A stretch of DNA of 64,000 bases from a virus, in the IMG/VR virus record IMGVR_UViG_3300005613_000004; one strand, written 5' to 3'. A program made the position numbers and the translations under genes. Positions 4,842 to 64,000 of this stretch are shown piece after piece. Under the pieces are notes generated by a model. That model searched no databases. It was not told where the DNA came from and was given only the letters and a program-made list of their open reading frames with translations. The number at the start of each line of letters is the position of its first letter. The first letter of the stretch is position 1.

Positions 4842-5254
4842 TGTTCAATCAAAATTCTAAGGTTGCAGTTCTCGAATCTAAATTCAGTATTTATGAAGAT
4901 CTGACTCGTGAGATGATGGCAAGGTTAGAAACTGCCGTGGATAAGATATCAGAAGGAAATCAAAGAATTGCTTCTATTCTTGCAAAGCATGATGAAAGGA
5001 TAGAGCAAAGTTTAAAAACAGATGATTTGATCATTAAAATGATTGATGAACTGAAAACATCTGAGGAAAAAAATAATAAAATTATTCATGACAGAATTGA
5101 TAGAATTCAAATAGATATCAAAGCGTTCTCAAAGTTTAGATGGCAAGTAGGAGGAGTTTTGATCGTATCAGCACTTATTATAAGTGCCGGTACTAGAGTT
5201 TTTCCATTTTTCTTGACTCAGACACCTCAGCAGGTTATAATGAAGAACCAGTGA
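4838..5254 (+). CDS. coiled-coil protein with C-terminal transmembrane segment (start likely ATG 4838)
   Basis: Heptad-rich body, hydrophobic WQVGGVLIVSALII tail. Confidence 0.6.
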   Translation: MMFNQNSKVAVLESKFSIYEDLTREMMARLETAVDKISEGNQRIASILAKHDERIEQSLKTDDLIIKMIDELKTSEEKNNKIIHDRIDRIQIDIKAFSKFRWQVGGVLIVSALIISAGTRVFPFFLTQTPQQVIMKNQ

Positions 5255-5266
5255 TGATTTCACACA

Positions 5267-6238
5267 ATGGATTTGGTTGATTCCAAGTATATTGGACTAG
5301 TATCTTCTCGCCTTCAGAAATTTAAGAGGGTAAAAGATAACTTATATAACTTCAGATGTCCCATTTGTGGAGACTCACAGAAAAATAAAAACAAGACACG
5401 AGGATATATCTATCAGGTTAAAAATAATGCAAACTTTAAGTGCCATAACTGTGGTGCAAGTATGTCCCTTAATAATTTTCTTAAGCATATTGATATAACT
5501 CTTCATAAGCAGTATACTCTTGAAAAATTTAAAGAAGGTCATACTGGAAAAAACTTTGTAGTGGAAGAACCAAAGTTTGATTTTAAGAAACCAGTGTTTA
5601 AGAAATCGATTAATTTACCAAAGGCATCGACTAATCATGTTGCATCGGAGTATCTTAAAAATCGCAAAGTAGATCCAGATAAGTTTTACTATGCTGATAA
5701 GTTCATGGAGTGGACTAATAGCCAAAAACAAACATTTGATACTATTAGGATAGATGAACCAAGAATTATAATTCCTATGTATGATGAATCTAAAAATTTT
5801 ATAGGATTTCAGGGAAGAGCACTGGGAAAGTCATTCACTAAATATATCACTGTGATGCTGAATGATGAAGCACCAAAGATTTATGGACTGGATTCAATCA
5901 ATAAAGCACTACCAATCTATGTGGTCGAAGGACCCTTCGACAGCACTTTTGTTGGGAATAGTGTGGCTTTGTGTGGCAGTGACGGTGACGTACGTTGTCT
6001 TGAAGGAAGCGATATTATTTTTGTTTATGATAATGAGCCCCGCAATCGAGAAATTGTCAATAGAATTGGGAAGTGTATTGAGAAAGGTCAGAGTGTCGTC
6101 ATCTGGCCAAACAGAATTATAGAAAAAGATATCAACGATATGGTTCTTGCTGGACATAACGTTATGGATGTGTTAAAATCAAACACTTACACCGGATTAC
6201 AAGCAAAGATTAAATTCAATAATTGGAAAAAGATATGA
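5267..6238 (+). CDS. gp61: T4-like DNA primase
   Basis: Zn finger CPICGDS...CHNCG; TOPRIM VVEGPFDS and YDNEPRN. Confidence 0.95.
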   Translation: MDLVDSKYIGLVSSRLQKFKRVKDNLYNFRCPICGDSQKNKNKTRGYIYQVKNNANFKCHNCGASMSLNNFLKHIDITLHKQYTLEKFKEGHTGKNFVVEEPKFDFKKPVFKKSINLPKASTNHVASEYLKNRKVDPDKFYYADKFMEWTNSQKQTFDTIRIDEPRIIIPMYDESKNFIGFQGRALGKSFTKYITVMLNDEAPKIYGLDSINKALPIYVVEGPFDSTFVGNSVALCGSDGDVRCLEGSDIIFVYDNEPRNREIVNRIGKCIEKGQSVVIWPNRIIEKDINDMVLAGHNVMDVLKSNTYTGLQAKIKFNNWKKI

Positions 6239-8532
6239 GTAACGGAACAAAAGTCATTAAGAGAAATGGAAATGATGAACTGCTTGATTTAAATAAATTG
6301 CATGTAATGGTAGAAGAAGCATGTAAAGATCTATCTGGTGTTTCTGCATCACAAGTTGAAATGCAATCTGGTATTCAATTCTATGACGGTATTACCACAG
6401 CAGAGATTCAGGAGATTTTAATTCGTTCTGCATCAGATTTGATTGATTTAGACCATCCAAACTATCAATACGTTGCTGCAAGGTTACTTTTATTTGCTCT
6501 TCGCAAAAAACTTTATGGACGTATGCATGAAAATCCAAAAGTAAAAACTCATGTTCAAAATTGTGTTGATATGGGTGTATATGACTCAGAAATTCTGAAC
6601 ATGTATACTGACGAAGAATTTGAAAAACTGGATTCATACATTGATCATAGTCGTGATTACTTATTCACCTATGCAGGATTACGTCAAGTTTGTGATAAAT
6701 ATCTTGTTCAGGATAGGAGCATCGGAAAGATATATGAAACTCCCCAGTTCATGTATTTGTTGATTGCAGCAACCATTTTTTCTAGGTATCCTAAAGAAAC
6801 ACGTCTCGATTACGTAAAAAAGTATTATGACGCAATCTCAAAACACAAAATCAACATTCCCACACCTATCATGGCAGGGGTTAGAACTCCACTTCGACAA
6901 TATGCTAGCTGTGTTCTTGTTGATGTTGATGACTCCCTCGATAGCATCTTTAGTTCTGATATGGCTATCGGCAGATATGTTGCACAAAGGGCGGGAATCG
7001 GTATCAATGCAGGTAGAATCCGCGGCATCAACAGTAAGATCAGAGGTGGAGAAGTTCAGCATACAGGCGTTATTCCGTTTCTCAAAAAGTTTGAGTCAAC
7101 TGTCAGATGTTGCACTCAAAACGGCATACGAGGTGGAAGCGCAACAGTACACTTCCCAATCTGGCACCAAGAAATAGAAGATATTTTAGTTCTTAAAAAT
7201 AATAAAGGAACAGAAGATAATAGAGTACGTAAACTAGATTACTCCATTCAAATGAGTAAATTGTTTTATGAACGATTCATCAACAATGAACATATTACAC
7301 TCTTCAGTCCACATGACGTTCCTGGTCTGTATGATGCTTTTGGTACTGATGGATTTGATGATTTATACAGAGCTTATGAGGGTGATCCAGATATTCCTCA
7401 AAAGGCAATTGGTGCTCAAGAACTTATAATGAGTCTCTTGAAAGAAAGAGCAGAGACTGGTAGAATCTATATTATGAATATTGATCACTGCAATTCTCAC
7501 TCATCCTTTATGGATAAGATTGAGATGAGCAACCTTTGTCAAGAGATCACTCTACCCACCAAACCTTTACAACATATTGATAGTACTGATGGTGAAATTG
7601 CTCTTTGTATTCTTAGTGCTATCAATATTGGTAAAATTAAAGATCTTGAAGATCTTCAGATTCTTTGCGATCTTGCTGTTAGGGGTCTTGATGAACTCAT
7701 TGATTTTCAGCAATATCCCATCAAGGCAGCAGAAATTGCCACAAAAGCACGTAGATCCCTCGGAATCGGTTATATTGGACTCGCACATTATCTTGCAAAG
7801 AATGGACTCTCCTACGACGATCCTGGAGCATGGAAATCGATTCATGACTTGACCGAAGCATTTCAATATTATTTGATCAAATCGACTGTCAATCTTGCAA
7901 GAGAAAAAGGTGCTTGTGAATACAGTGATCGTACTAAGTATAGTCGGGGAATTCTTCCGATTGATACATATAAGAAGGATGTGGATGAAATTGTGCCAAA
8001 TGTTCTTCACTGTAATTGGGAGAAACTTAGAGCACAAGCTAAGCAGTATGGAGTTAGAAATTCAACATTGTCAGCACAAATGCCTTCGGAGAGTAGCTCC
8101 GTTGTATCAAATGCAACTAATGGAATTGAACCTCCTAGAGGATTCCTTTCGATTAAAAAATCGAAACAAGGACCTCTTAAGCAAATTGTTCCGCAGTATA
8201 ATTCACTAAAGAACAATTATACTTTATTGTGGGATATGCCCTCTAATAGGGGATACATCAATATTGTTGCAGTAATGCAAAAATTCTTTGATCAGGCAAT
8301 ATCTGGAAATTGGAGTTATAATCCAAAACATTATTCAAACAATGAGATTCCTGTGTCTATAATGGCACAAGATCTTTTAACTACATATAAGTATGGTTGG
8401 AAAACCAGTTATTATCAAAATACATATGACATTAAGACTGATGAAGTAGAAGAACCTACCGAATCACTTGATACATTAATTAATCAATTAGAAGTAGCAG
8501 AGGAGGAAGATTGTGAGTCTTGTAAGATTTAA
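6235..8532 (+). CDS. nrdA: ribonucleotide reductase class I alpha subunit (start likely ATG 6235)
   Basis: ATP-cone VIKRNG, PTPIMAG, ASCVL, SNLCQEI, LSAQMPSESSS, C-terminal CESCKI. Confidence 0.98.
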   Translation: MSNGTKVIKRNGNDELLDLNKLHVMVEEACKDLSGVSASQVEMQSGIQFYDGITTAEIQEILIRSASDLIDLDHPNYQYVAARLLLFALRKKLYGRMHENPKVKTHVQNCVDMGVYDSEILNMYTDEEFEKLDSYIDHSRDYLFTYAGLRQVCDKYLVQDRSIGKIYETPQFMYLLIAATIFSRYPKETRLDYVKKYYDAISKHKINIPTPIMAGVRTPLRQYASCVLVDVDDSLDSIFSSDMAIGRYVAQRAGIGINAGRIRGINSKIRGGEVQHTGVIPFLKKFESTVRCCTQNGIRGGSATVHFPIWHQEIEDILVLKNNKGTEDNRVRKLDYSIQMSKLFYERFINNEHITLFSPHDVPGLYDAFGTDGFDDLYRAYEGDPDIPQKAIGAQELIMSLLKERAETGRIYIMNIDHCNSHSSFMDKIEMSNLCQEITLPTKPLQHIDSTDGEIALCILSAINIGKIKDLEDLQILCDLAVRGLDELIDFQQYPIKAAEIATKARRSLGIGYIGLAHYLAKNGLSYDDPGAWKSIHDLTEAFQYYLIKSTVNLAREKGACEYSDRTKYSRGILPIDTYKKDVDEIVPNVLHCNWEKLRAQAKQYGVRNSTLSAQMPSESSSVVSNATNGIEPPRGFLSIKKSKQGPLKQIVPQYNSLKNNYTLLWDMPSNRGYINIVAVMQKFFDQAISGNWSYNPKHYSNNEIPVSIMAQDLLTTYKYGWKTSYYQNTYDIKTDEVEEPTESLDTLINQLEVAEEEDCESCKI

Positions 8533-51737: not shown

Positions 51738-52628
51738 ATGAAACTTTGGATGCTTGGTAATCGTCTCACTACTGAGATGTATGAACGTAACAGATTTGTA
51801 GAAGAAGCAGATAAATATGGTATTGATTTCTCAGTAGTTTTTGCTGACGAAATCGACTTAATCGTTTCCCAAGATGACCGCAAATCTATTCGATATCGTA
51901 ATGATATTCTCAGTCTCCCTGACTGTTTACTTGCTCGTACTGGGTCTGCTACTGGTTATTTTAACCTCAGTGTTCTCAGACAGTTTGAAAGACTGAATGT
52001 AATGACGATGCCAAACTCTGCTTCGATTGAGGCATCGAAGGATAAGATGTATGCTAACCAGATTATGGCACAAGCAGGACTTCCCATCCCAAAGACGATG
52101 CTGACAAGATTTCCTTGTAAAGCAGAGACTGTTCAGAAGCAAGTGGGATTTCCTTGTGTCCTAAAAGTGGTTACTGGTTCTCATGGTGCTGGTGTTTTCC
52201 TTTGTGAAGATGCTAAACAGTTTGAAGATTTGTCGGAACTTATTTCTTCTCTTGAATCAAAATCTTCTATGATTGTTCAGGAGTATGTAAAAGAATCGGA
52301 AGGAAGAGACCTTCGGGTCATTGTTATTGGTGGTAGAGTTGTTGGAGCAATGCAACGCAAGTCTACTGATGGTTCATTTAAAGCCAATATTTCCCGTGGA
52401 GGTAAAGGGGAAACATACGATGTTGATGACGAATTGGAAATGCTATCAATTCAAGTTGCAAAAGTTCTTGATCTTGATATTGCTGGTGTCGATCTATTAT
52501 TTTCTAGCGACGGATACCGAATCTGTGAAGCAAACTCAGCCCCAGGATTCCAAGGATTTGAGGAAGCACTAGGGATTAATATCCCTCAGAAAGTTTTTGA
52601 TTATGTTAAACTCAGATGTGGAGGGTGA
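51738..52628 (+). CDS. RimK-like ATP-grasp ligase
   Basis: SKDKMY, IPKT, VLKVVTGSHGAGV, QEYV..GRDLRV, FKANISRGG, AGVDLL, EANSAPGF. Confidence 0.9.
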   Translation: MKLWMLGNRLTTEMYERNRFVEEADKYGIDFSVVFADEIDLIVSQDDRKSIRYRNDILSLPDCLLARTGSATGYFNLSVLRQFERLNVMTMPNSASIEASKDKMYANQIMAQAGLPIPKTMLTRFPCKAETVQKQVGFPCVLKVVTGSHGAGVFLCEDAKQFEDLSELISSLESKSSMIVQEYVKESEGRDLRVIVIGGRVVGAMQRKSTDGSFKANISRGGKGETYDVDDELEMLSIQVAKVLDLDIAGVDLLFSSDGYRICEANSAPGFQGFEEALGINIPQKVFDYVKLRCGG

Positions 52629-54385: not shown

Positions 54386-54598
54386 ATGATGGCAGTAAAC
54401 CACAGAAAAATGACTTGTAAGGAAGCTCTTTTGGCTCGATACAAAGTCTCTGGGCGTAAATCAGAAAGTGGATATGGTGAATCTGCTGTTGGTTTGTCTT
54501 ATGAGGAAGCACAAAGATTCTTTGATTCTTTGACTTATCGTGGTTTTGAAATCAAAGTGGTTGCTTACTGGGATGAACATGTTTTTTATTCAGAATAA
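54386..54598 (+). CDS. hypothetical protein (cassette 3)
   Basis: Exactly fills the gap between repeats 3 and 4. Confidence 0.65.
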   Translation: MMAVNHRKMTCKEALLARYKVSGRKSESGYGESAVGLSYEEAQRFFDSLTYRGFEIKVVAYWDEHVFYSE

Positions 54599-54644
54599 AC
54601 CACTTCCACAACCGTCACAGCACTCCTTTACGGGGGTGCTTTTT

Positions 54645-54652
54645 TATAAATA
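54645..54652 (+). promoter_or_regulatory. late promoter TATAAATA replacing the -10 box in repeat 4
   Basis: gtgcttttt-TATAAATA-aat versus gtgcttttttattgTATAAT in the other copies. Confidence 0.8.
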
Positions 54653-54673
54653 AATCTATGGAAGTTAAAAAAA

Positions 54674-55156
54674 ATGAATTCACAAGAACTTCGTAACCTT
54701 CAAGAAGCATATTTAGAAGTTGTTGAAAATCAACAGCAACTTGATGAAGGATATGTAGAATTTGACAAAGATAGAGGACCTAGAAAACCATCGCCAAGAG
54801 GAAAGTTGGTAACGAAAGCCTCACAAAAAAGACTTGGCAATATTCTTTCTCCACATCATAGAGATGCAAAGAAACAAGGAGAAAGAGCTGAAAAAATGAG
54901 CTCGGTTAGGGATACTCATAGTCCAGAAAAAGCACAAGCAAAAGCAGCAGCAAATAAGGCAAAAGGTGAATCAAAGAAAAAGGCATTCGGCAATCGTTTA
55001 AGAAGATCGGACGGACAAGGTATTCAGGATAGTTATGATTATTACGACATCATCCTTTCACACCTTCTTGATGAAGGTTATGCTGAAACACCAGAAGCAG
55101 CAGAAGCAATTATGGTGAATATGAGTGAAGAGTGGAGAGATAGTATTATTGGTTGA
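54674..55156 (+). CDS. probable head-internal protein (cassette 4)
   Basis: MNSQELRNLQEAY..QLDE leader, basic core, DIILSHLLDEGYAETPEAAEAIMVNMSEEW tail. Confidence 0.65.
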   Translation: MNSQELRNLQEAYLEVVENQQQLDEGYVEFDKDRGPRKPSPRGKLVTKASQKRLGNILSPHHRDAKKQGERAEKMSSVRDTHSPEKAQAKAAANKAKGESKKKAFGNRLRRSDGQGIQDSYDYYDIILSHLLDEGYAETPEAAEAIMVNMSEEWRDSIIG

Positions 55157-55237
55157 TAACCACTTCCACAACTGTCACAGCACTCCTTTACGGGGGTGCT
55201 TTTTTATTGTATAATACTCTTATAGTCAATCAAACTA

Positions 55238-55773
55238 ATGACTGAAGAATACGGATACATTTCTGATGCCTTTGATATGCTACCAGAAGAGGAACTTCTT
55301 ATGACTGACGAACAAATTAAAATGCTCCGTCGTCTCATTCAAGATGAGATTGAATGTGCTCAAATTGATGGTATGGAGCATGGTCAATGGGGATGGGCGG
55401 AGAAACAACTTGATGAAGGATGGAAAGAGTTTCAGGAGAGTTTTACCAAATGAGTATCCCACATTTCAAATCCCAAGACGACTGGCTAGAGTTTCTCAGC
55501 ATCTTTCAGGGCCAATGGCAATGTAAGCTAACACTGCTGGATCGTGTGAAGAATGATTTGTTCCCTGAATATAAGTCTTGGGATCAACTTCAACCGAAGA
55601 CTTTGGAAGTGATCAACGACATTGTATCTAATCTTGTGTATGAGGTAGAGCGTCAGTTCAAAGAGACCCATCAGGACTATAAGACTGATGATGATGACAT
55701 CTTCATTCCCTATCGTTCTTTCAAAGAGAATGTAACAGAAGCATTGAAAGAGGCTCTAAAGGAGGACAACTGA
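55238..55773 (+). CDS. two hypothetical proteins (55238-55453 and ~55450-55773; cassette 5)
   Basis: ATGA-coupled ORFs filling the gap between repeats 5 and 6. Confidence 0.65.
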
Positions 55774-55898
55774 CCACTTCCATAACCGTCACAGCACTCC
55801 TTCGCATGGGTGCTTTTTTATGGTATAATGACTTCATATACATCAATCATCATGATCAAAGATTCTGCCCCATAATTAATAGTAAAATTATAAAAATT

Positions 55899-56837
55899 AT
55901 GAATCCAATTTATGAACACTTTAAGTCCAAAAACTGTGAAGTAAATTTTATTGATAAGAATATTTGGGAAATATCAAAAGGCAATTCTAAATTTTTGATA
56001 TATGTTCCATACTTGGTATGTGATCAGGACCCTTCACTTTCGAAGGAAATTACTGAATTTAAATCAAGAACAAATGCATACCTGAAACGTAATAATTATC
56101 CACATACTGAACAATTGTTTGTATCTAGAATTGAGGATTTGGATAATGCTTTAGATAAAATTGGATATCCTTGTGCTATAAAGCCAAATAATGAAAACAA
56201 TGGAAATGGGGTTTATTGTAATATAAAATCAAAACATCAATTAATGTTTCATATACACCAACAAAGTGCATATTTTTATCAAGATGGATTGATATTAGAG
56301 AAGCACGTTAGAGGTGATGATTATAGAATAACAGTCATTAATAATGAGTTCTTATTCGCAGTACAGCGAAAACCTCCATTGATTGTTGGTGATGGTAAAA
56401 AGACAATTATTGAATTAATTGATGATAAGAATGAAGAAATAGAAAAACTTAAAAATAAATTTAGTTTTTATAATAATATCATTGTCAATGATTCTGAGAT
56501 TAATTATAATTTGAGTTTAAATAATTTAACATTTGATTCTGTTCTTGATGTGGATCAAACATTTATATTGAAGAGTATTTCTAACTTAAGTGTTGGTGGA
56601 GAGAGAATATTTGTTCCTAGAGAAAAAATACATGAATCAGTTATTGATATGTGTGAATCTTTATCTAAAGATTTAAATTTATTTTCACTTGGGATTGATT
56701 ATATAACTGAAGATATTAGTAAAGAACCAGAACTGGGTAAAGATTCTATAATAGAATTAAATTACAACCCTCAAGTTTCTGGTGAGTATTATTTTAAATG
56801 TTTGGATATGATGCTTGAAAAGTATGAATGTAACTGA
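55899..56837 (+). CDS. ATP-grasp ligase resembling the cyanophycin-synthetase/GshF grasp domain (start likely ATG 55899)
   Basis: YPCAIKP..ENNGNGV, LEKHVRGDDYRITV, PPLIVGDGKKTIIELID, SNLSVGG, GIDYITEDIS, IIELNYNP; no Mur domain. Confidence 0.8.
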   Translation: MNPIYEHFKSKNCEVNFIDKNIWEISKGNSKFLIYVPYLVCDQDPSLSKEITEFKSRTNAYLKRNNYPHTEQLFVSRIEDLDNALDKIGYPCAIKPNNENNGNGVYCNIKSKHQLMFHIHQQSAYFYQDGLILEKHVRGDDYRITVINNEFLFAVQRKPPLIVGDGKKTIIELIDDKNEEIEKLKNKFSFYNNIIVNDSEINYNLSLNNLTFDSVLDVDQTFILKSISNLSVGGERIFVPREKIHESVIDMCESLSKDLNLFSLGIDYITEDISKEPELGKDSIIELNYNPQVSGEYYFKCLDMMLEKYECN

Positions 56838-57552
56838 TTCTGGAGAATATGGAGATATCTTTGAAGAAAGAGGGTATCTTTACCATCTTGCTATGAGTAA
56901 GTTTCCCAATGCTAGAAAACTTGAGTTTGATAATCTTTTTGAAGAATGTGAACTTCGACCATCTGAGGACATCTTAGATGTTCCTTCTCTTGGTGGATAT
57001 TTGGATTTATATGAGACGGAAGGTGTTAATATAACCTATGCAGATTTTGCTCCTACAAAAGGTGTAATTAATTTGGAAAGTCCATATTCTAATTGGGATT
57101 TGGGAAGTTTTGATAGGATAATTTCTTTAGCTGCCACTCATCATATTAGGGATATTGAAAAATTTATTTCCAATATAGATAAACATTTGCGTCCCGGTGG
57201 AATTGTAACCATTGCTGATGTAGAACCTGACAGTGGAGTTTCCAAATTCTTAGATGGATATGTGGATAAGTATACGATTACTGGATCGCATAGAGGATAT
57301 TATCGTGATTTTTCTAAAGTAGAAACTCCCTGGAAAATTATTTCTCATTCAAAAAAACAATGTGATTGGAAGTTTTCTGAAGAAATTATTGATATTGCTG
57401 AATTTTGCTATGATTTATTTGGATTGAAAGATTGTCATTTTTCTTCTTTGATTGATACTTTAAGAGATGATATTGGAATTGAATATAATTCTGGCAACTA
57501 TGTATTAAAATGGAATCTAATATACACACATTACATTAAGTTTGATAATTAA
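56815..57552 (+). CDS. class I SAM-dependent methyltransferase
   Basis: ILDVPSLGGYL, ISLAATHH, LRPGG..TIADV. Confidence 0.8.
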   Translation: MKSMNVTDSGEYGDIFEERGYLYHLAMSKFPNARKLEFDNLFEECELRPSEDILDVPSLGGYLDLYETEGVNITYADFAPTKGVINLESPYSNWDLGSFDRIISLAATHHIRDIEKFISNIDKHLRPGGIVTIADVEPDSGVSKFLDGYVDKYTITGSHRGYYRDFSKVETPWKIISHSKKQCDWKFSEEIIDIAEFCYDLFGLKDCHFSSLIDTLRDDIGIEYNSGNYVLKWNLIYTHYIKFDN

Positions 57553-57591
57553 ATATAAGGTCAACTATATAATGTGAGTTTGATTTGATAC

Positions 57592-58041
57592 ATGGAAGAA
57601 TATAGTATTAAAATTGTTTATAAGAAACTTTCTCTCGAAGAAAAATTAGAAATTGTAAACCTTTGGACTTCCGAAAATGCTGTTCCTTATAATGTTGCCA
57701 TTGAAAGAGTTGAGCATGTTGTTTGCAGTATAATTCATAATCCTACTGGAAAAATTATAGGTGTCAGTACAGCACCACCCAAACAATTTCATGGGAAATT
57801 TTATTATACTTACGGAATGTATATTTCACAATATCATAGGAAAAATACTTTTACAAGAAAACAACCCTGGATTTTGCAATCAACTATTGATGCATTAAAA
57901 AATTCAAAACCTCTTGTTTCTTCTATTATATTGTCACTTGTAGAAAATCCTAAAATTTCTCATAAACTGATGTTACGTAAAGGTTGGACAATATTTGATA
58001 ATGATAGATTTAAAAATGTATATTATATAAAATTGACCTAA
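57592..58041 (+). CDS. GNAT-like hypothetical protein
   Basis: IVNLWTSENA, GKIIGVST, YGMYISQYHRK; fold call is inference. Confidence 0.45.
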   Translation: MEEYSIKIVYKKLSLEEKLEIVNLWTSENAVPYNVAIERVEHVVCSIIHNPTGKIIGVSTAPPKQFHGKFYYTYGMYISQYHRKNTFTRKQPWILQSTIDALKNSKPLVSSIILSLVENPKISHKLMLRKGWTIFDNDRFKNVYYIKLT

Positions 58042-58712
58042 TGAGAAATAAAAAAAATTATCTAGTATTATATTTACTATCTCATATTAGTTTTTTATTT
58101 TATGTTTATATTTTTGGATTGAATTACATCTATACATTATTATTGGGATTAATGGTGTATAATTTATCAGCAGAACTTTACATGCATAGAGGATTGTCTC
58201 ATAATCATTTTAAATTTTCTGATAATGTTCAAATGATACTGAATATTTTATATTCGATGTGTAATTTTGGTAGTATATTAGTTAGTATTTCTGCTCATTA
58301 TAATCATCATAAATTTATGGATCAACAAAATGATCCTCATGATTTTAGAAGACTTGGTGTTTTTAGAACTATAATTAAAGACTGGGATAATTATAGTCCA
58401 GATAAAAATGTCATGAGAAATTTGATAAAAAATAAAAATTTAAGGGATCAACATTTTAATCACCAAAAATATTCTATTATTTCGGTATTATTTTTCCCAT
58501 TTGTGCCTATGATTAGTTTTTGGGCAATAAATCTTATATTCATAGTTACACATACGGGGAATTATAAAGATAGTGCTATTAATATTCCATTTTTATACCC
58601 ATTAATGTGGGGGTCTGAAATGCATTATGATCATCATTTAAATCCTAGTAAGAAAAAAATGCATGATTATGATTTAATTTATTATCTTGGTGAACTGATA
58701 AAGAGCAAATAA
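58041..58712 (+). CDS. membrane fatty-acid desaturase-like protein (delta-9/DesC type)
   Basis: His boxes HRGLSH, HYNHH, HYDHH; DPH; hydrophobic helices. Confidence 0.82.
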   Translation: MRNKKNYLVLYLLSHISFLFYVYIFGLNYIYTLLLGLMVYNLSAELYMHRGLSHNHFKFSDNVQMILNILYSMCNFGSILVSISAHYNHHKFMDQQNDPHDFRRLGVFRTIIKDWDNYSPDKNVMRNLIKNKNLRDQHFNHQKYSIISVLFFPFVPMISFWAINLIFIVTHTGNYKDSAINIPFLYPLMWGSEMHYDHHLNPSKKKMHDYDLIYYLGELIKSK

Positions 58713-58736
58713 TCATTCAATTATTAATAAGAAATT

Positions 58737-59225
58737 ATGAAAGTTAATCAACAGTATTATAAGTATTGGTTGGATATTTGGAAAACACAAACTATCGAAG
58801 TTCTTGATGCAACTGCACTTATTCGTGTGATTGAATGTACAAACGGTTGTGTTCAGTATGCATTTCGTGATGGTAATGAGAATGCACTTTCTGTTGAACA
58901 AAGTAGAGAGTGTATGAAAATTTCTATGAGTACAATTAAGAATAAGGTTTTGACATTGCCTGACGGAACAGAAGTTGTATTACCGGAAGAATGCCATGGA
59001 ATTATGAATGAAGCACGAGATTTATATGTTCGTGGATTTAAGCAAGGTGATAATGAAGCACTGGAAGAATTTTATGCATTATCTAAATCACATTTTCATG
59101 TATTAGGTAGGCAGATTATTGATGAGAAGTTTCAGTTCTTTACAGAGCACTTTGAGGATGTCTTTACTTCTTACTGGATTATGATGGGGAGGATGTATAT
59201 TTACGAAATGGGTGAATTTATCTAA
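58737..59225 (+). CDS. hypothetical protein
   Basis: ORF track. Confidence 0.65.
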   Translation: MKVNQQYYKYWLDIWKTQTIEVLDATALIRVIECTNGCVQYAFRDGNENALSVEQSRECMKISMSTIKNKVLTLPDGTEVVLPEECHGIMNEARDLYVRGFKQGDNEALEEFYALSKSHFHVLGRQIIDEKFQFFTEHFEDVFTSYWIMMGRMYIYEMGEFI

Positions 59226-59248
59226 ATAGTTGTAAGACGCAATTTTTT

Positions 59249-59605
59249 ATGCCTCTTTACAATACCTTTCAAGCCTATGTTTTTAATCTCCACACAACTA
59301 ATTCTTCAGAAGCAAAACGGTTATGGAGGTCAAAAATAAAGGAAGAATGGGATTATCGATGTGCTTATTGTGGGTCTGATAAAAATATTACAATAGACCA
59401 TATTGTTCCAAGATCAAAAGGTGGTACAGATTTTACAGAAAATTGTATCTGTGCATGTCATTCCTGTAATCAAGACAAAGGTCATACTCCTATGGAAGAT
59501 TGGTATCTTTCACAGGAGTTTTTTGATATTGATCGTTATGAAAAAATTAAAAAATGGATGGAATCGGATTTGAAATTAATGAAAGTTTATCCATATAATA
59601 CTTAA
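59249..59605 (+). CDS. HNH endonuclease
   Basis: CAYCG...TIDHIVPRSKGG....NCICACHSCNQDKG. Confidence 0.9.
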   Translation: MPLYNTFQAYVFNLHTTNSSEAKRLWRSKIKEEWDYRCAYCGSDKNITIDHIVPRSKGGTDFTENCICACHSCNQDKGHTPMEDWYLSQEFFDIDRYEKIKKWMESDLKLMKVYPYNT

Positions 59606-59672
59606 TTTAAATTTTATAAATATATCAAAAGGCAGTATATACTGCTAGATCCGGTAAATACCGATTATAAAA

Positions 59673-61907
59673 ATGTCAACTCCGATTAGGATACGTAGGT
59701 CTGCTGTACCTAATAAAAAACCAACTACAGAACAACTTCAGTTAGGTGAATTGGCACTTAACTTTTATGATGGTAAAGTTTTTTTAAAACAGGATCAGGG
59801 GGGAGTTGGTGTTGGAACTAGAATCGTTTCAATTAATTCTAATGAGGTAGGAAATACTTTTTATGTTAACAAAGAAGGTGACGATAATGATACTGGACTA
59901 TCTCCAGACAGAGCATTTCTAACTATTAAAAAAGCAGCAGGAATTGCAACTATAAACGATGCCATTTATGTTGGTGCTGGTAGATATGTAGAAGATAATC
60001 CAATAGTTCTTGATGACTTTGTTACGATTATTGGTGGAGACATTCGTAACTGTGAGATTGAACCACAGAATCCAGAACATGATGTTATACAATTAGGTCA
60101 AGCAGGAACTGTTCAAGATTTATCATTTGTTGGTGTTGCAGATACTGGTTCTGGAGTCATTGCATATCGTCCATTAGTCGGTGTTGCATCTGATAGATTT
60201 TTTGACGCAGCAAGATTAATTCGTCAGAACTTAGATTTTATTGCACAAGAATCTGTGGGATATATTACAAGCACAGATTACAAAAATCCACCAATATCAA
60301 TTGATTCATCAAATTGTGCTGATGATATTAAAGATGTTTATCGTGCAGTATGTCATGATATTACACGAGGTGGAAACTCTAAATGTATTGGAGCAGGAAA
60401 ATCATACTTCGATATTAATGGAAATCTAGATCACATTGTGGGATTTGGTTCAACAACTATTGATACATTAAAATATTCTGTAGGTATTGCAAGATCATGT
60501 GTTAATAATATTTTATGGACCGGAAATTATCAATCTGCATTTACTCAAGTAAGGGATTTAAGTATTCAGGCGGATGGAGCAACAGGATCTAATTCGGATT
60601 ATAATTCTTGTGCCAATGTTCATTCTGCAATCAATTCTTGTGTTGGCATTGTAACTGGTATCATTCAGAATGGTATTGATGGATCACCTCCAACTTTAGG
60701 ATTTACAACAAATTATCCCGGTAATGATGGTGCTTCTCCCAATTCTGGTATTTTAACTTCTTCACTCAGTCCATCACAGGGTGTAGGAATTATTAGTAAA
60801 GGTCCTTATATTCGTAACTGTACTAATTTTATTAAGAATAGTATTGGATGTAAAATTGATGGATTTAATGCTGATGAAGGAGATAAAATAAACAATATTG
60901 GTGTTCAAGGTTCATTTAACGTTGATGCATTTACCCAATTCAATCAAAATGGTATTGGTGTATCAGTAACTAATGGTGCATATTGTCAATTAGTTTCTAT
61001 TTTTAGTATTTGTAATGATATAGCAATTTATGCAGGTAAAGGTGGACAGTGTGATTTGACAAATTCCAATTCATCTTTTGGAACTAGAGGATTAGTTGCT
61101 GAAGGTCTTGGTGATCAAACTAGTCAATGTACTGATCGGTATACGGGAGAAATTTCTACAGATGCTGATGAACTTACGAATGTTATAACAGTATCTGGTT
61201 TAGGAAATAATCGTCCATATCAGGGACAAGCATTGTATTTTGATAGGAAATATTTTGTCATCTCTGATATTAGAGTTACAAATGGTGGTTCTGGATATGA
61301 TGAAGATAATCCACCCGTTGTCACCATTGATGATCCGACAGGACCCGGACTTGCGATTCCTTCGCAAGCAACTACAACTGTTGAAAATGGATCTGTATCT
61401 GTAATTACAGTTTTTGGTGGTGGATCACAATTTGAAACCACACCCACAGTCACTATTGCACCACCAACCAGTGGAGTTCAGGCAACTGCTGTAGCTGATA
61501 TGGAAGCAATTTACTATGGTATTATTGAAGCAACAGAACCTGTTGCAGGAGTTTCAACAATCAGTTTAATTCAAAACCTAAATAACGATGTTAGTGTTGG
61601 TACAACAGTATATTTTTCCAAACAAAGTTTCCAAATTGTAAGTTCACATTCCTTTCAATACATTGGTGCGGGGAATACTATTGAATCTGCATATCCCTCT
61701 AGGGGTGGAGTGACAATTCAAGATAATGAGGTTATAAAACTTGATGGTGGTGAGATTACTTATACAAGCACTGATCAAGCAGGTAATTTTAGAATTGGTG
61801 ATGGTGTTGAAATTAATCAATCAACTGGTACAGTGACTGGAAACATTTATATTAAGAGTTTATTCACACAAGTCACACCATTCATTCTTGCATTAGGAGG
61901 AGAATAA
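59673..61907 (+). CDS. tail-fibre/baseplate-associated virion protein
   Basis: IRIRRSAVPNKKP..LGELALN, AFLTIKKAA, GSGYDEDNPPVVTI, FRIGDGVEINQSTG; TATAAATA ~59615. Confidence 0.75.
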   Translation: MSTPIRIRRSAVPNKKPTTEQLQLGELALNFYDGKVFLKQDQGGVGVGTRIVSINSNEVGNTFYVNKEGDDNDTGLSPDRAFLTIKKAAGIATINDAIYVGAGRYVEDNPIVLDDFVTIIGGDIRNCEIEPQNPEHDVIQLGQAGTVQDLSFVGVADTGSGVIAYRPLVGVASDRFFDAARLIRQNLDFIAQESVGYITSTDYKNPPISIDSSNCADDIKDVYRAVCHDITRGGNSKCIGAGKSYFDINGNLDHIVGFGSTTIDTLKYSVGIARSCVNNILWTGNYQSAFTQVRDLSIQADGATGSNSDYNSCANVHSAINSCVGIVTGIIQNGIDGSPPTLGFTTNYPGNDGASPNSGILTSSLSPSQGVGIISKGPYIRNCTNFIKNSIGCKIDGFNADEGDKINNIGVQGSFNVDAFTQFNQNGIGVSVTNGAYCQLVSIFSICNDIAIYAGKGGQCDLTNSNSSFGTRGLVAEGLGDQTSQCTDRYTGEISTDADELTNVITVSGLGNNRPYQGQALYFDRKYFVISDIRVTNGGSGYDEDNPPVVTIDDPTGPGLAIPSQATTTVENGSVSVITVFGGGSQFETTPTVTIAPPTSGVQATAVADMEAIYYGIIEATEPVAGVSTISLIQNLNNDVSVGTTVYFSKQSFQIVSSHSFQYIGAGNTIESAYPSRGGVTIQDNEVIKLDGGEITYTSTDQAGNFRIGDGVEINQSTGTVTGNIYIKSLFTQVTPFILALGGE

Positions 61908-62267: not shown

Positions 62268-64000
62268 ATGGTTGCACCGATTAGATATCTTAGTCGTAGA
62301 GTACAAGAACAAAAAATTGGTATTCTGCAAAGCACAGAAGATGAAAAAGTATTAGAAGTTATTGGACGTGTTGGTATTGGTTCAACTGTTTTTGATACTG
62401 ATTATAATTTAGATGTTAGAGGATCTACAAATGTTGCAGATTCTTTAATAGTTGGTAGTGACTTAAATGTATCTGGAGTATCTACATTCACTGGTGCTGC
62501 TGACTTTGATGGTGATGTTGATATTGATGGTCATACTGAGTTAGATGACTTAAATGTATCTGGAGTATCTACATTCACTGGTGCTGCTGACTTTGATGGT
62601 GATGTTGATATTGATGGTCATACTGAGTTAGATGACTTAAATGTATCTGGAGTATCAACATTTACTGGTAATGCTGACTTTGATGGTGATTTAGATGTTG
62701 ATGGTCATACTGAGTTAGATGACTTAAATGTATCTGGAGTATCTACATTTAGTTCAGATATCTATGTTGGTTCGGAACTTTATGATGGAAATAACCTTAG
62801 TGGTAATTTCAATCAAGTATTATCATCAACAGGTATAGGAGTATCTTGGATAACACCTATAAATACTCCTTCTGGTAGAGAAATTTTATCACAAGAACTA
62901 TCAACACCCTATTACATTACCGCTTCGGATGTAACTAGTGGTGTATCGACTGCTTCATTCATTGATACTACTATTGTTGCTAAGGATGGTAAAATTGGTA
63001 TTGGAACTGACGATCCCTCACAAAAATTAAATGTTAATGGTGATATTCGTATTGAAGGAAATGGAAGTATTGCTAACATTTATGGACCACAAAATATTTT
63101 TATCGATCCTGACCCAGCTGGTATAGGAACCACCAGTGGCATCGTAAGAATTAAAGGTGATCTTTATGTTGATGGTACTAATTTTATTGTAGATTCTGAA
63201 AATATAACTCTTGCCGACTTTGTTGTTGGTATTGCATCAACAGTTCCCAGTGATATTCTTCTTGATGGTGCTGGTATTGGAATCGGATCTACAAATCCAA
63301 GCACCGGAGAACATTATCATACATTTCTTTATGAATATAATGGTGGAACTGATTCATCATTTAAGTCTAGTGAAAACTTAAATGTTCCCAGTGGTAAGCA
63401 TTATCAAATTGCAGAAACAGAAAGACTTTCTGCCAATACTTTAAGTTTGGGGACAGGAACAACAATACATTCTCCTGATACCAATGTATTAACTTTTGGA
63501 ACTGCTAATAATGAAAGAGTTCGTGTAACTTCTACTGGTAATATTGGTATTAATAGTACATTACCAACAAGACTTTTGGATGTCAATGGTGATGTGAGGC
63601 TTGGAGATAAAATATTTGATAGTGTTGGTAGTGCAGGAACTTCTAATTATGTTTTAGCATCTAATGGTTCTGGATCATCATGGAGTTGGCAACTTGTAAC
63701 AGATTTGGGTGCTCTTGATGCAATTCGTGTCAAGCAAGATGGGAATAATGTTGGTGTTGCTGGAACAAATGATACATTAGACTTTTATGAAAATTTTTCA
63801 TTAACACAACCATCTGCTGGTATTGCTTCTATTCGTTTATCAGAATACATTAATATTACTGGAATCAATACATTGAGTGGCAATCTTGGTATTGGAACTA
63901 CAAATCCAAATGTAAAACTACAAATTAATGGTGTTCTTGGATTTGGAACTGCTTATGATGGGGATGAAGAAGTTACTTATACGAATATAAGAATTGGAGA
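62268..64000 (+). CDS. long tail-fibre protein, truncated by the window end (not in ORF track)
   Basis: ATG 62268 opens MVAPIRYLSRRVQEQKIG...; GRVGIGST, GKIGIGTDDP, GNIGINST repeats. Confidence 0.85.
   Translation, partial: MVAPIRYLSRRVQEQKIGILQSTEDEKVLEVIGRVGIGSTVFDTDYNLDVRGSTNVADSLIVGSDLNVSGVSTFTGAADFDGDVDIDGHTELDDLNVSGVSTFTGAADFDGDVDIDGHTELDDLNVSGVSTFTGNADFDGDLDVDGHTELDDLNVSGVSTFSSDIYVGSELYDGNNLSGNFNQVLSSTGIGVSWITPINTPSGREILSQELSTPYYITASDVTSGVSTASFIDTTIVAKDGKIGIGTDDPSQKLNVNGDIRIEGNGSIANIYGPQNIFIDPDPAGIGTTSGIVRIKGDLYVDGTNFIVDSENITLADFVVGIASTVPSDILLDGAGIGIGSTNPSTGEHYHTFLYEYNGGTDSSFKSSENLNVPSGKHYQIAETERLSANTLSLGTGTTIHSPDTNVLTFGTANNERVRVTSTGNIGINSTLPTRLLDVNGDVRLGDKIFDSVGSAGTSNYVLASNGSGSSWSWQLVTDLGALDAIRVKQDGNNVGVAGTNDTLDFYENFSLTQPSAGIASIRLSEYINITGINTLSGNLGIGTTNPNVKLQINGVLGFGTAYDGDEEVTYTNIRIG
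62460..62749 (+). repeat. 87-nt (29-aa) tandem repeat, 3 full copies plus a partial
   Basis: DLNVSGVSTFTGAADFDGDVDIDGHTELD units start at 62460, 62547, 62634, 62721. Confidence 0.95.

Follow-up and report, generated by a model that had tools for sequence, protein, structure and literature searches.

The auxiliary genes of cyanophages alter metabolism in phototrophs that rank among the most abundant of the ocean. In the N-acetylglutaminylglutamine synthetase family TIGR03103, a GNAT enzyme and a CphA-like ligase build an N-acyl dipeptide. PeSL cassettes of T4-type phages were reportedly described by Arbiol et al. in 2010. According to the available text of Comeau et al. 2014 (PMC4122927), PeSL is a repeated element of T4-type phages that joins a stem-loop terminator to a sigma-70-type promoter. 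Cyanomyophages carry the desaturases named vFADs, for which delta-9 activity on C16 chains has been demonstrated; the text available from that study describes two groups, vFAD-I and vFAD-II, that are homologous to cyanobacterial DesC and match the picocyanobacterial types (Roitman et al. 2018, PMC5776448). Here we analysed a window of 64,000 nucleotides (nt), the whole stretch given as one strand of the IMG/VR virus record IMGVR_UViG_3300005613_000004, in which positions 55899-58712 are filled by four intact plus-strand open reading frames (ORFs). They encode a putative ATP-grasp ligase, a predicted methyltransferase, a 149-amino-acid (aa) protein of an unnamed family and a desaturase-like membrane protein. 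We propose that the four genes form two separable, translationally coupled enzyme modules set side by side by cassette shuffling, a reading that we judge about equally apt to prove right or wrong.

The initial annotation had picked out these genes as closely spaced, AT-rich and lying behind the sixth copy of a repeat, and the ORF coordinates, the composition and the position of that copy (the sixth of six, at 55767-55819) all agree with this. The ligase gene (55899..56837, plus strand) encodes 312 aa, predicted to act as a stand-alone carboxylate-amine ligase, and runs into the methyltransferase gene (56824..57552, plus strand; 242 aa from ATG 56824). For the methyltransferase gene, TTG 56815 is listed as an alternative start (245 aa), so that the two genes overlap by 14 nt or 23 nt, respectively; ATG 56824 is the likely start because the alignment of six homologous sequences begins at MNV. 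After a spacer of 39 nt (57553..57591), the sole non-overlapping junction within the block, follow the gene for the 149-aa protein (57592..58041, plus strand) and the desaturase-like gene (58041..58712, plus strand; 223 aa), the stop of the former and the start of the latter having TAATG in common. The two pairs, ligase with methyltransferase and 149-aa protein with desaturase, are thus laid out as translationally coupled genes. GC content of the four genes is 24-31%, compared with 35.4% for the whole window, and the desaturase and ligase genes have the two lowest values among the 46 plus-strand ORFs that reach 150 aa. At third codon positions, the GC of the four genes is not unusual, and the bias therefore lies largely in the encoded amino acids. 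The ORF list shows no acyl carrier, acyl-activating or export gene in the cassette.

The initial annotation had treated the four genes as one mini biosynthetic cluster, for which a failure of the genes ever to co-occur elsewhere would count against a shared role. Co-occurrence is seen elsewhere, but in pairs: a conserved four-gene cluster was not found, and each of the two pairs recurs without the other in diverged phages. The full set of four was found only in near-identical copies of this one phage, which come from marine metagenomes of three further studies. The ligase and methyltransferase pair was found at two distinct further phage loci. One, L001 (the same record as L002), is an 8.4-kb cyanophage contig in which the two genes show the same 14-nt overlap and are followed by psbD; the complete record gave no desaturase match. 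The other, L004, has a 4-nt overlap and lies between psbD and tail-fibre-like genes, its ligase and methyltransferase being 45% and 41% identical to those of the window. Two further short contigs probably carry homologues of both genes, since the ligase and the methyltransferase homologues are listed with contigs of equal length (1788 and 1731).

The pair of 149-aa protein and desaturase was present in all four IMG/VR viral contigs found with the 149-aa protein, which belong to one lineage; the genes overlap, lie directly after fibre-like genes and are 38-49% identical to those of the window, and in all four contigs the desaturase match begins 23 nt after the 149-aa match. Neither the ligase nor the methyltransferase profile matched the 122.6-kb contig with this pair (about 50% complete by CheckV), while each of them did match in the L001 control. 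The nearest homologues of the ligase and methyltransferase are 78-83% identical, those of the 149-aa protein and desaturase only 58-64%, and this inequality suggests separate histories for the two pairs. In every locus examined, both pairs lie 4-14 GC points below the contig that carries them, and both were found only on phage-like metagenomic contigs. In L009, a cyanophage contig perhaps of freshwater type, a gene for a calcineurin-like metallophosphoesterase (6219-6920; Pfam 1.3e-13) lies directly 3' of the homologous pair of 149-aa protein and desaturase. In another locus, L003, a C-terminal fragment of a desaturase-family gene (Pfam 29.9 bits, cut-off 29.7) ends 6 nt upstream of a ligase homologue, which is followed directly by glycan-type genes and by no methyltransferase. 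The fragment was considered as a member of the window subfamily and set aside, its kinship being at superfamily level only (hhalign probability 2.8%).

DNA nearly identical to the block was present in 20 runs of 8 studies. Four of these (X1, X3, X7 and X16) were compared with positions 54500-60000; runs with a share below 0.5 and the uncovered parts of the RNA run were left out as evidence. The block occurs in other marine metagenomes as a unit (55887..58769) on one contig, with contig ends at both of its borders in three studies. Single contigs of 2922 letters (X1) and 2935 letters (X3) cover 55887-58769 with 10 and 12 differences, respectively, and three overlapping contigs span it in X7. 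In X1 and X3, positions 55457 and 55887 are linked on a contig by 8 other letters, and 55458-55886 (429 nt) is skipped. This junction removes the ORF at 55420-55773 together with repeat copy 6, and it would place the block of those variants behind the promoter of copy 5. A variant with a 1-nt insertion after 57587, in the spacer between the pairs, was found in X1 and X7. The contig ends and the junction, together with the low GC of the pairs and with the repeat and neighbourhood described below, show that the block is mobile. As to selection, six of the 10 differences listed within the block are synonymous, including all four in the ligase gene, and none falls in the desaturase gene.

The repeat in front of the block belongs to a family (D4) of six copies of 53 nt or longer. 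Copy 6, whose terminator-like and promoter-like parts together occupy 55767..55829 on the plus strand, has a hairpin at 55793-55814 with a T-run, a -35 element TTCGCA (55801-55806) within the loop and, 17 nt on, a TG-extended -10 element TATAAT (55824-55829). A scan for terminator-like sites gave 16, against 3.5 +/- 2.1 in shuffled sequences, and 6 of the 16 are the repeat copies, all six of them. A promoter-like site with a spacer of 17-18 nt is present in five of the six copies and absent from the copy at 54593. This fourth copy (54593-54645) keeps the hairpin and T-run, which are then followed by TTTTTATAAA in place of TTTTTATTGT, and shows no sigma-70-like site. No terminator-like repeat copy lies inside the four-gene block.

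As far as the available text of PMC4122927 defines PeSL, namely a terminator that overlaps a sigma-70-type early promoter and is repeated at the borders of variable genes, the D4 family has the same properties. The same composite of terminator and promoter (TTTACG, 17 nt, TATAAT) recurs from one accessory gene to the next, and it is likewise tied to insertion and deletion differences among close relatives. Two differences stand out against that text: the repeat described here is in a cyanophage, a term of which the available text has 0 occurrences, and its cargo is a four-gene enzyme block in place of the single ORFans described there. The first cassette of the same array contains a RimK-family ATP-grasp gene (51738-52628; Pfam RimK 1.7e-52), which matches the PHROG 'ribosomal protein S6 glutaminyl transferase' at 3.7e-63. 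Together with the ligase of the block, the array therefore holds two unrelated ATP-grasp ligases.

With the ligase sequence alone, ATP-grasp matches in Pfam were all below threshold. A profile of the 12-sequence ligase family, compared with the Protein Data Bank (PDB), matched the solved G domains of cyanophycin synthetase, CphA2 and GshF at E values of 8e-47 to 3e-25, and D-Ala-D-Ala ligases far more weakly. The profile spans the whole G domain (residues 171-456 in 7lg5; 7ta5 at E 8e-47). Among NCBIfam models, the cyanophycin synthetase TIGR02068 matched the ligase at E 9e-48 (162.9 bits, cut-off 850), GshAB at 1e-27 (96.6 bits, cut-off 425) over the grasp half only (profile positions 478-730 of 756) and TIGR03103, a fusion of GNAT and grasp parts, at 2.8e-20 (72 bits, cut-off 569), the last of these matching the relative P0006 at 2.9e-32. 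The scores lie far below the full-length cut-offs because the grasp part alone is present. The RimK family matched at 1.2e-6, far more weakly than the cyanophycin synthetase family.

Seven residues, K95, R143, R157, N229, D267, E286 and N288, are invariant in all 12 members of the ligase family. Mapped by hand from a phmmer alignment to the TeCphA1 structure 7wac, they align with K261, R309, R323, N394, D431, E450 and N452 of that enzyme. The available text on TeCphA1 assigns K261, R309, D431, E450 and N452 to ATP, acyl-phosphate and Mg, reports them as mutationally essential, and describes contacts of R323 and N394 with aspartate (PMC9427784). Other features of CphA1 are lacking. The P-loop His267 is replaced by N101; the primer-binding Glu215 aligns with E50, in a column that varies across the family (E/K/A/I/G); and for Gly456 and Arg458 no equivalents were found, the alignment ending at residue 455 and the ligase tail (292-312) containing no Arg. 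Of the three-domain architecture of CphA1 (N, G and MurE-like M domains), the 312-aa protein covers approximately residues 171-456 only, and the next ORF is the methyltransferase. A GshF-type N-terminal glutamate-cysteine ligase domain is not present either, as only the grasp half matches. The protein therefore appears to be a competent carboxylate-amine ligase. It is not a cyanophycin synthetase and, lacking the N and M domains, cannot make cyanophycin.

Compared with the CphA1 and CphA2 G domains and the grasp half of GshF, the ligase thus has the same ATP-grasp catalytic set and the same expected chemistry, namely formation of an acyl-phosphate and then of an amide bond; it differs in lacking the N, M and GshA parts and in being coupled instead to a methyltransferase. 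Its likeness to TIGR03103 lies in the ATP-grasp half and in the precedent of a GNAT enzyme working with a CphA-like ligase. In the window, however, the proteins are separate and encoded by non-adjacent genes, the GNAT-like gene pairs with the desaturase and not with the ligase, and there is no amidotransferase partner. Relatives of the ligase are rare: pattern scans of 185,579 species genomes gave none, a close-relative scan of IMG/VR with the single protein gave nothing, and among 5.8 billion clustered proteins 14 were found at E <= 1e-3, one of them 100% identical and covering 75% of the query. Matches by tblastn in 8 Listeria, Enterococcus or unclassified 'phage' records (29-31% identity) were set aside as probable GshF-type host genes.

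The product of 56824..57552 is predicted to be a class I methyltransferase dependent on S-adenosylmethionine. It matched Pfam Methyltransf_11 with 27.2 bits, above the cut-off of 21.2, and the clusters of look-alikes in the language-model Atlas were all class I methyltransferases. At the position of motif I, L-D-x-P-S-x-G-x-Y is invariant across the family and reads DVPSLGGY in the window protein; the profile alignment sets LDIGCGWGG of CFA synthase 6bqc against it. No solved relative was informative (best PDB E value 0.03), tblastn against isolated phages gave no match, and 4 relatives at E <= 1e-3, one 100% identical, were found among 5.8 billion clustered proteins.

The 223-aa product of 58041..58712 is a putative membrane di-iron enzyme that resembles desaturases, most closely those of the delta-9 (SCD1) type. 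It contains the His boxes HRGLSH (H49-H54), HYNHH (H86-H90) and HYDHH (H195-H199), and hydrophobic segments at residues ~7-45 and ~143-172, and so has both the three boxes (HX4H, HX2HH, HX2HH) and the membrane segments of the delta-9/SCD type of PF00487. All three boxes, along with H100 and H171, are invariant in five of five relatives. Pfam FA_desaturase gave 23.9 bits for the window protein (cut-off 29.7) and a passing 30.5 bits for the L009 homologue, and the best solved relative was SCD1 (4ymk), which aligns over boxes 1 and 2 at E 2.5e-4. Among 5.8 billion clustered proteins, 4 relatives were found at E <= 1e-3, one 100% identical, and none was found in pattern scans of the 185,579 species genomes. 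In IMG/VR, the single protein found nothing, and a first profile (A2), whose patterns did not admit the L009 variant, confirmed 0 of 133 pattern matches; with wider patterns (A7), 4 were recovered.

In 50,697 phage records, tblastn with the desaturase found one relative, a 216-aa protein of Pelagibacter phage Mosig with 24% identity (MT647606; L005 5986-6636), which is the sole member there of the short subfamily to which the window protein belongs. The two proteins have the same truncated architecture (hhalign probability 98.6%), and the Mosig gene likewise lies in an island of tailoring enzymes that adjoins tail-fibre genes. Its neighbours there are different, being annotated as Asp/Arg hydroxylases, an aminotransferase, an FMN reductase, a TauD-type dioxygenase, radical-SAM-like genes and a carbamoyltransferase. 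The annotated methylase and N-acetyltransferase of Mosig were considered as kin of the window proteins and found unrelated (hhalign probabilities 0.07% and 0.3%). With vFAD-I and vFAD-II, as the available text of PMC5776448 presents them, the window protein shares a phage-borne delta-9-type sequence with three His boxes, and the window cyanophage also carries psbA and psbD. It appears to be set apart from that published description by being much shorter and more diverged, by the gene for a 149-aa partner that always overlaps its own, and by its only relative in an isolated phage, which is in a pelagiphage.

For the 149-aa protein, a soluble protein with no hydrophobic segment, no sequence match was found in Pfam, PHROGs, NCBIfam or the PDB, and its profile gave none in the PDB either. 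Weak GNAT matches in Pfam (E 0.0017-0.0071) were obtained for 2 of 35 homologues, and the Atlas cluster of look-alikes that was named 'GNAT family' automatically gave the protein a feature score of 0.96. The GNAT-like label is a lead and not a result. The gene identities given in the initial annotation largely stood for the ligase, the methyltransferase and the three-His-box desaturase, while its acyltransferase-fold part met weak signals only. Relatives numbered 42 at E <= 1e-3 among 1.84 billion representatives; the 10 clusters checked for names were all 'hypothetical protein' or nameless, and tblastn against isolated phages gave no match.

The 149-aa-like domain was also observed as part of longer proteins. 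In the metagenomic protein P0045 (479 aa), the domain (residues 5-121) is followed by a C-terminal ATP-grasp part (weak Pfam ATPgrasp_ST match, 6.5e-4), which was considered as kin of the window ligase and rejected (hhalign probability 0.2%). On the giant viral contig L014 (IMGVR_UViG_3300020045_006153, 353 kb), the domain forms the C-terminal part of a 443-aa ORF (5140-6471) that sits among carbamoyltransferase and sulfotransferase genes. A reading of the N-terminal part of this ORF as a glycosyltransferase was dropped, as Pfam gave no match at 1e-3. The desaturase-family match on L014 lies ~137 kb from the 149-aa-like domain, and the two are therefore not adjacent.

On the basis of these results, the block is best read as an accessory cassette in a hypervariable region of tail-fibre and auxiliary genes of a marine cyanophage carrying psbA and psbD, and the host-type early promoter inside the PeSL-like repeat probably drives it. 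In the first module (55899-57552), the stand-alone ligase corresponds to the cyanophycin synthetase G domain, the N and M domains being absent. To judge from its homologues, it most likely spends ATP to activate a carboxylate, that of a small peptide or of an N-blocked amino acid, as an acyl-phosphate and then joins this to the amine of an amino acid, and the methyltransferase most likely methylates the substrate or the product. In the second module (57592-58712), a putative 149-aa transferase, possibly of GNAT fold, is coupled to the short membrane di-iron enzyme, which most likely desaturates or otherwise oxidises an acyl chain located in the host membrane or at it; more speculatively, the 149-aa partner might acylate or prepare the molecule that carries the chain. 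A link between the two pairs may nevertheless exist, given the adjacency in L003 and the fusion in P0045.

In a rival reading, the four genes would serve a single pathway: the GNAT-like protein would attach an acyl group to the nitrogen of an amino acid, the ligase would couple a second amino acid to the carboxylate of the first, the methyltransferase would cap the molecule and the desaturase would act on its acyl chain, yielding either a lipo-amino acid or dipeptide methyl ester or else an aminolipid of the membrane. In favour of this, the genes share one cassette that a single promoter-like site precedes and no terminator-like repeat copy interrupts, they move as one block and have an unusual composition in common, and TIGR03103 demonstrates that the logic of a GNAT enzyme with a CphA-like ligase exists. 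P0045 joins the 149-aa-like domain to an ATP-grasp part, and in L003 a desaturase-family gene lies 6 nt before the ligase homologue; however, that ATP-grasp part is unrelated to the ligase family and that desaturase fragment is kin at superfamily level only. Further, diverged phages can have either pair while lacking the other, the nearest homologues of the pairs differ in identity, and the cassette has no gene for an acyl carrier, acyl activation or export. We regard a single pathway as unlikely. Decidedly doubtful, in our estimate, is its fuller form, in which the pairs are exchangeable sub-modules that make, early in infection, an N-acylated, one-residue-extended, methyl-capped and desaturated lipo-amino acid or dipeptide, membrane-associated or diffusible, that would serve as a signal or as a phosphorus-free aminolipid remodelling the cyanobacterial membrane. 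The initial annotation had suggested that a modified acyl-amino acid or lipopeptide might act as a signal or anti-defence molecule. No defence or anti-defence signal was found with PADLOC, which gave only a generic methyltransferase-domain match (mad2, 1.3e-5), and a defence-system reading was dropped.

Another explanation is modification of proteins: the ligase would attach amino acids to a host or virion protein in the manner of RimK, and methyl and acetyl groups would be placed by the methyltransferase and the GNAT-like protein on targets such as tail fibres or the translational machinery. In the window, L004 and L009, tail-fibre-like genes adjoin the cassette and the pairs; the same array holds the RimK-family ligase with its PHROG match of 3.7e-63; and the available texts of two comparative genomic studies suggest that ATP-grasp and GNAT genes of phages serve to modify peptides or proteins (PMC7824862, PMC2938197). 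A place beside fibre genes is, however, the general site of hypervariable cargo in the available description of PMC7029224. The ligase has its closest characterised relatives in the CphA1 and CphA2 G domains, GshF and TIGR03103, whose substrates are small peptides or amino acids, the RimK-family score of 1.2e-6 stands against 9e-48 for cyanophycin synthetase, and a membrane di-iron enzyme resembling desaturases has no obvious protein substrate, so that we hold protein modification to be rather improbable. The remaining explanation takes the desaturase as a plain gene of the vFAD type that keeps host membranes fluid during infection, next to three unrelated neighbours. Delta-9 activity of cyanomyophage vFADs on C16 chains is on record in the available text of PMC5776448, and the window protein has boxes of the delta-9 type and resembles SCD1. 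Yet the vFADs are described in that text as homologues of DesC, whereas the window protein has 223 aa and scores below the Pfam cut-off; its only relative among the 50,697 phage records is that of Mosig; and the overlap with the 149-aa gene, conserved at 38-49% identity, argues for a partner. We consider this explanation very unlikely.

Several points weigh against the two-module reading itself. None of the four proteins has a characterised close relative. Adjacency, like composition and movement as one block would fit a single pathway as well. The score of the desaturase below the Pfam cut-off, the atypical motif I of the methyltransferase (DVPSLGG) and the weak GNAT assignment of a family whose window member has no GNAT match of its own bear on the enzymes. 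The arrangement in L003, with no adjacent methyltransferase, means that the partnerships are not strictly fixed. The sample of contexts comprises two further loci for the first pair and one lineage for the second, all in fragmentary records (CheckV 4-50%). In the coral metatranscriptome library X16, contigs fall in all four genes; DNA carry-over is possible there, and the contigs are not proof of transcription.

The surroundings agree with a site of variable cargo. The window belongs to a marine cyanophage and encodes a ribonucleotide reductase, a primase and tail-fibre proteins. Matches of its 30-50 kb part to phages of Synechococcus and Prochlorococcus were patchy and fell on psbA, ferredoxin and similar genes; of the 380 records, none covers 80% of the query. 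Megablast of 55000-60000 against isolated phages gave 40 records with all matches outside the four genes, and each of the four proteins matched 0 PHROGs families. The block has fibre genes on both sides and lies near psbA/psbD and a glycan island, a neighbourhood that fits what the available text of PMC7029224 sets out for cyano- and pelagimyophages as a hypervariable 'host recognition cluster'. The two genes after the block (58737-59605), phrog_3318 and one for an HNH endonuclease, share 81.5% DNA identity with Synechococcus phage S-SKS1. Farther on, three tandem copies of a 117-nt unit (62459-62749; 87-nt spacing, 94-99% identical) lie inside a fibre-like gene at 62268-63998.

The block is a rare accessory cassette in which known enzyme superfamilies occur in new pairings. 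That no description of the combination was known, as the initial annotation stated, agrees with our survey of the literature on cyanophage ATP-grasp ligases and methyltransferases, cyanophycin synthetase and lipid desaturases, in which none was found, mostly at the level of titles and abstracts. Within the same survey, no phage description was found for either pairing, that of a ligase of the cyanophycin synthetase type reduced to the G domain with a methyltransferase, or that of a minimal delta-9-type desaturase with a small transferase-like protein. If nothing is made by these enzymes, the block would be ordinary cargo of a hypervariable region. If products are found, they would be small molecules or lipids made by phages beyond the known desaturase gene, and the locus would show how PeSL-type cassettes assemble multi-enzyme cargo.

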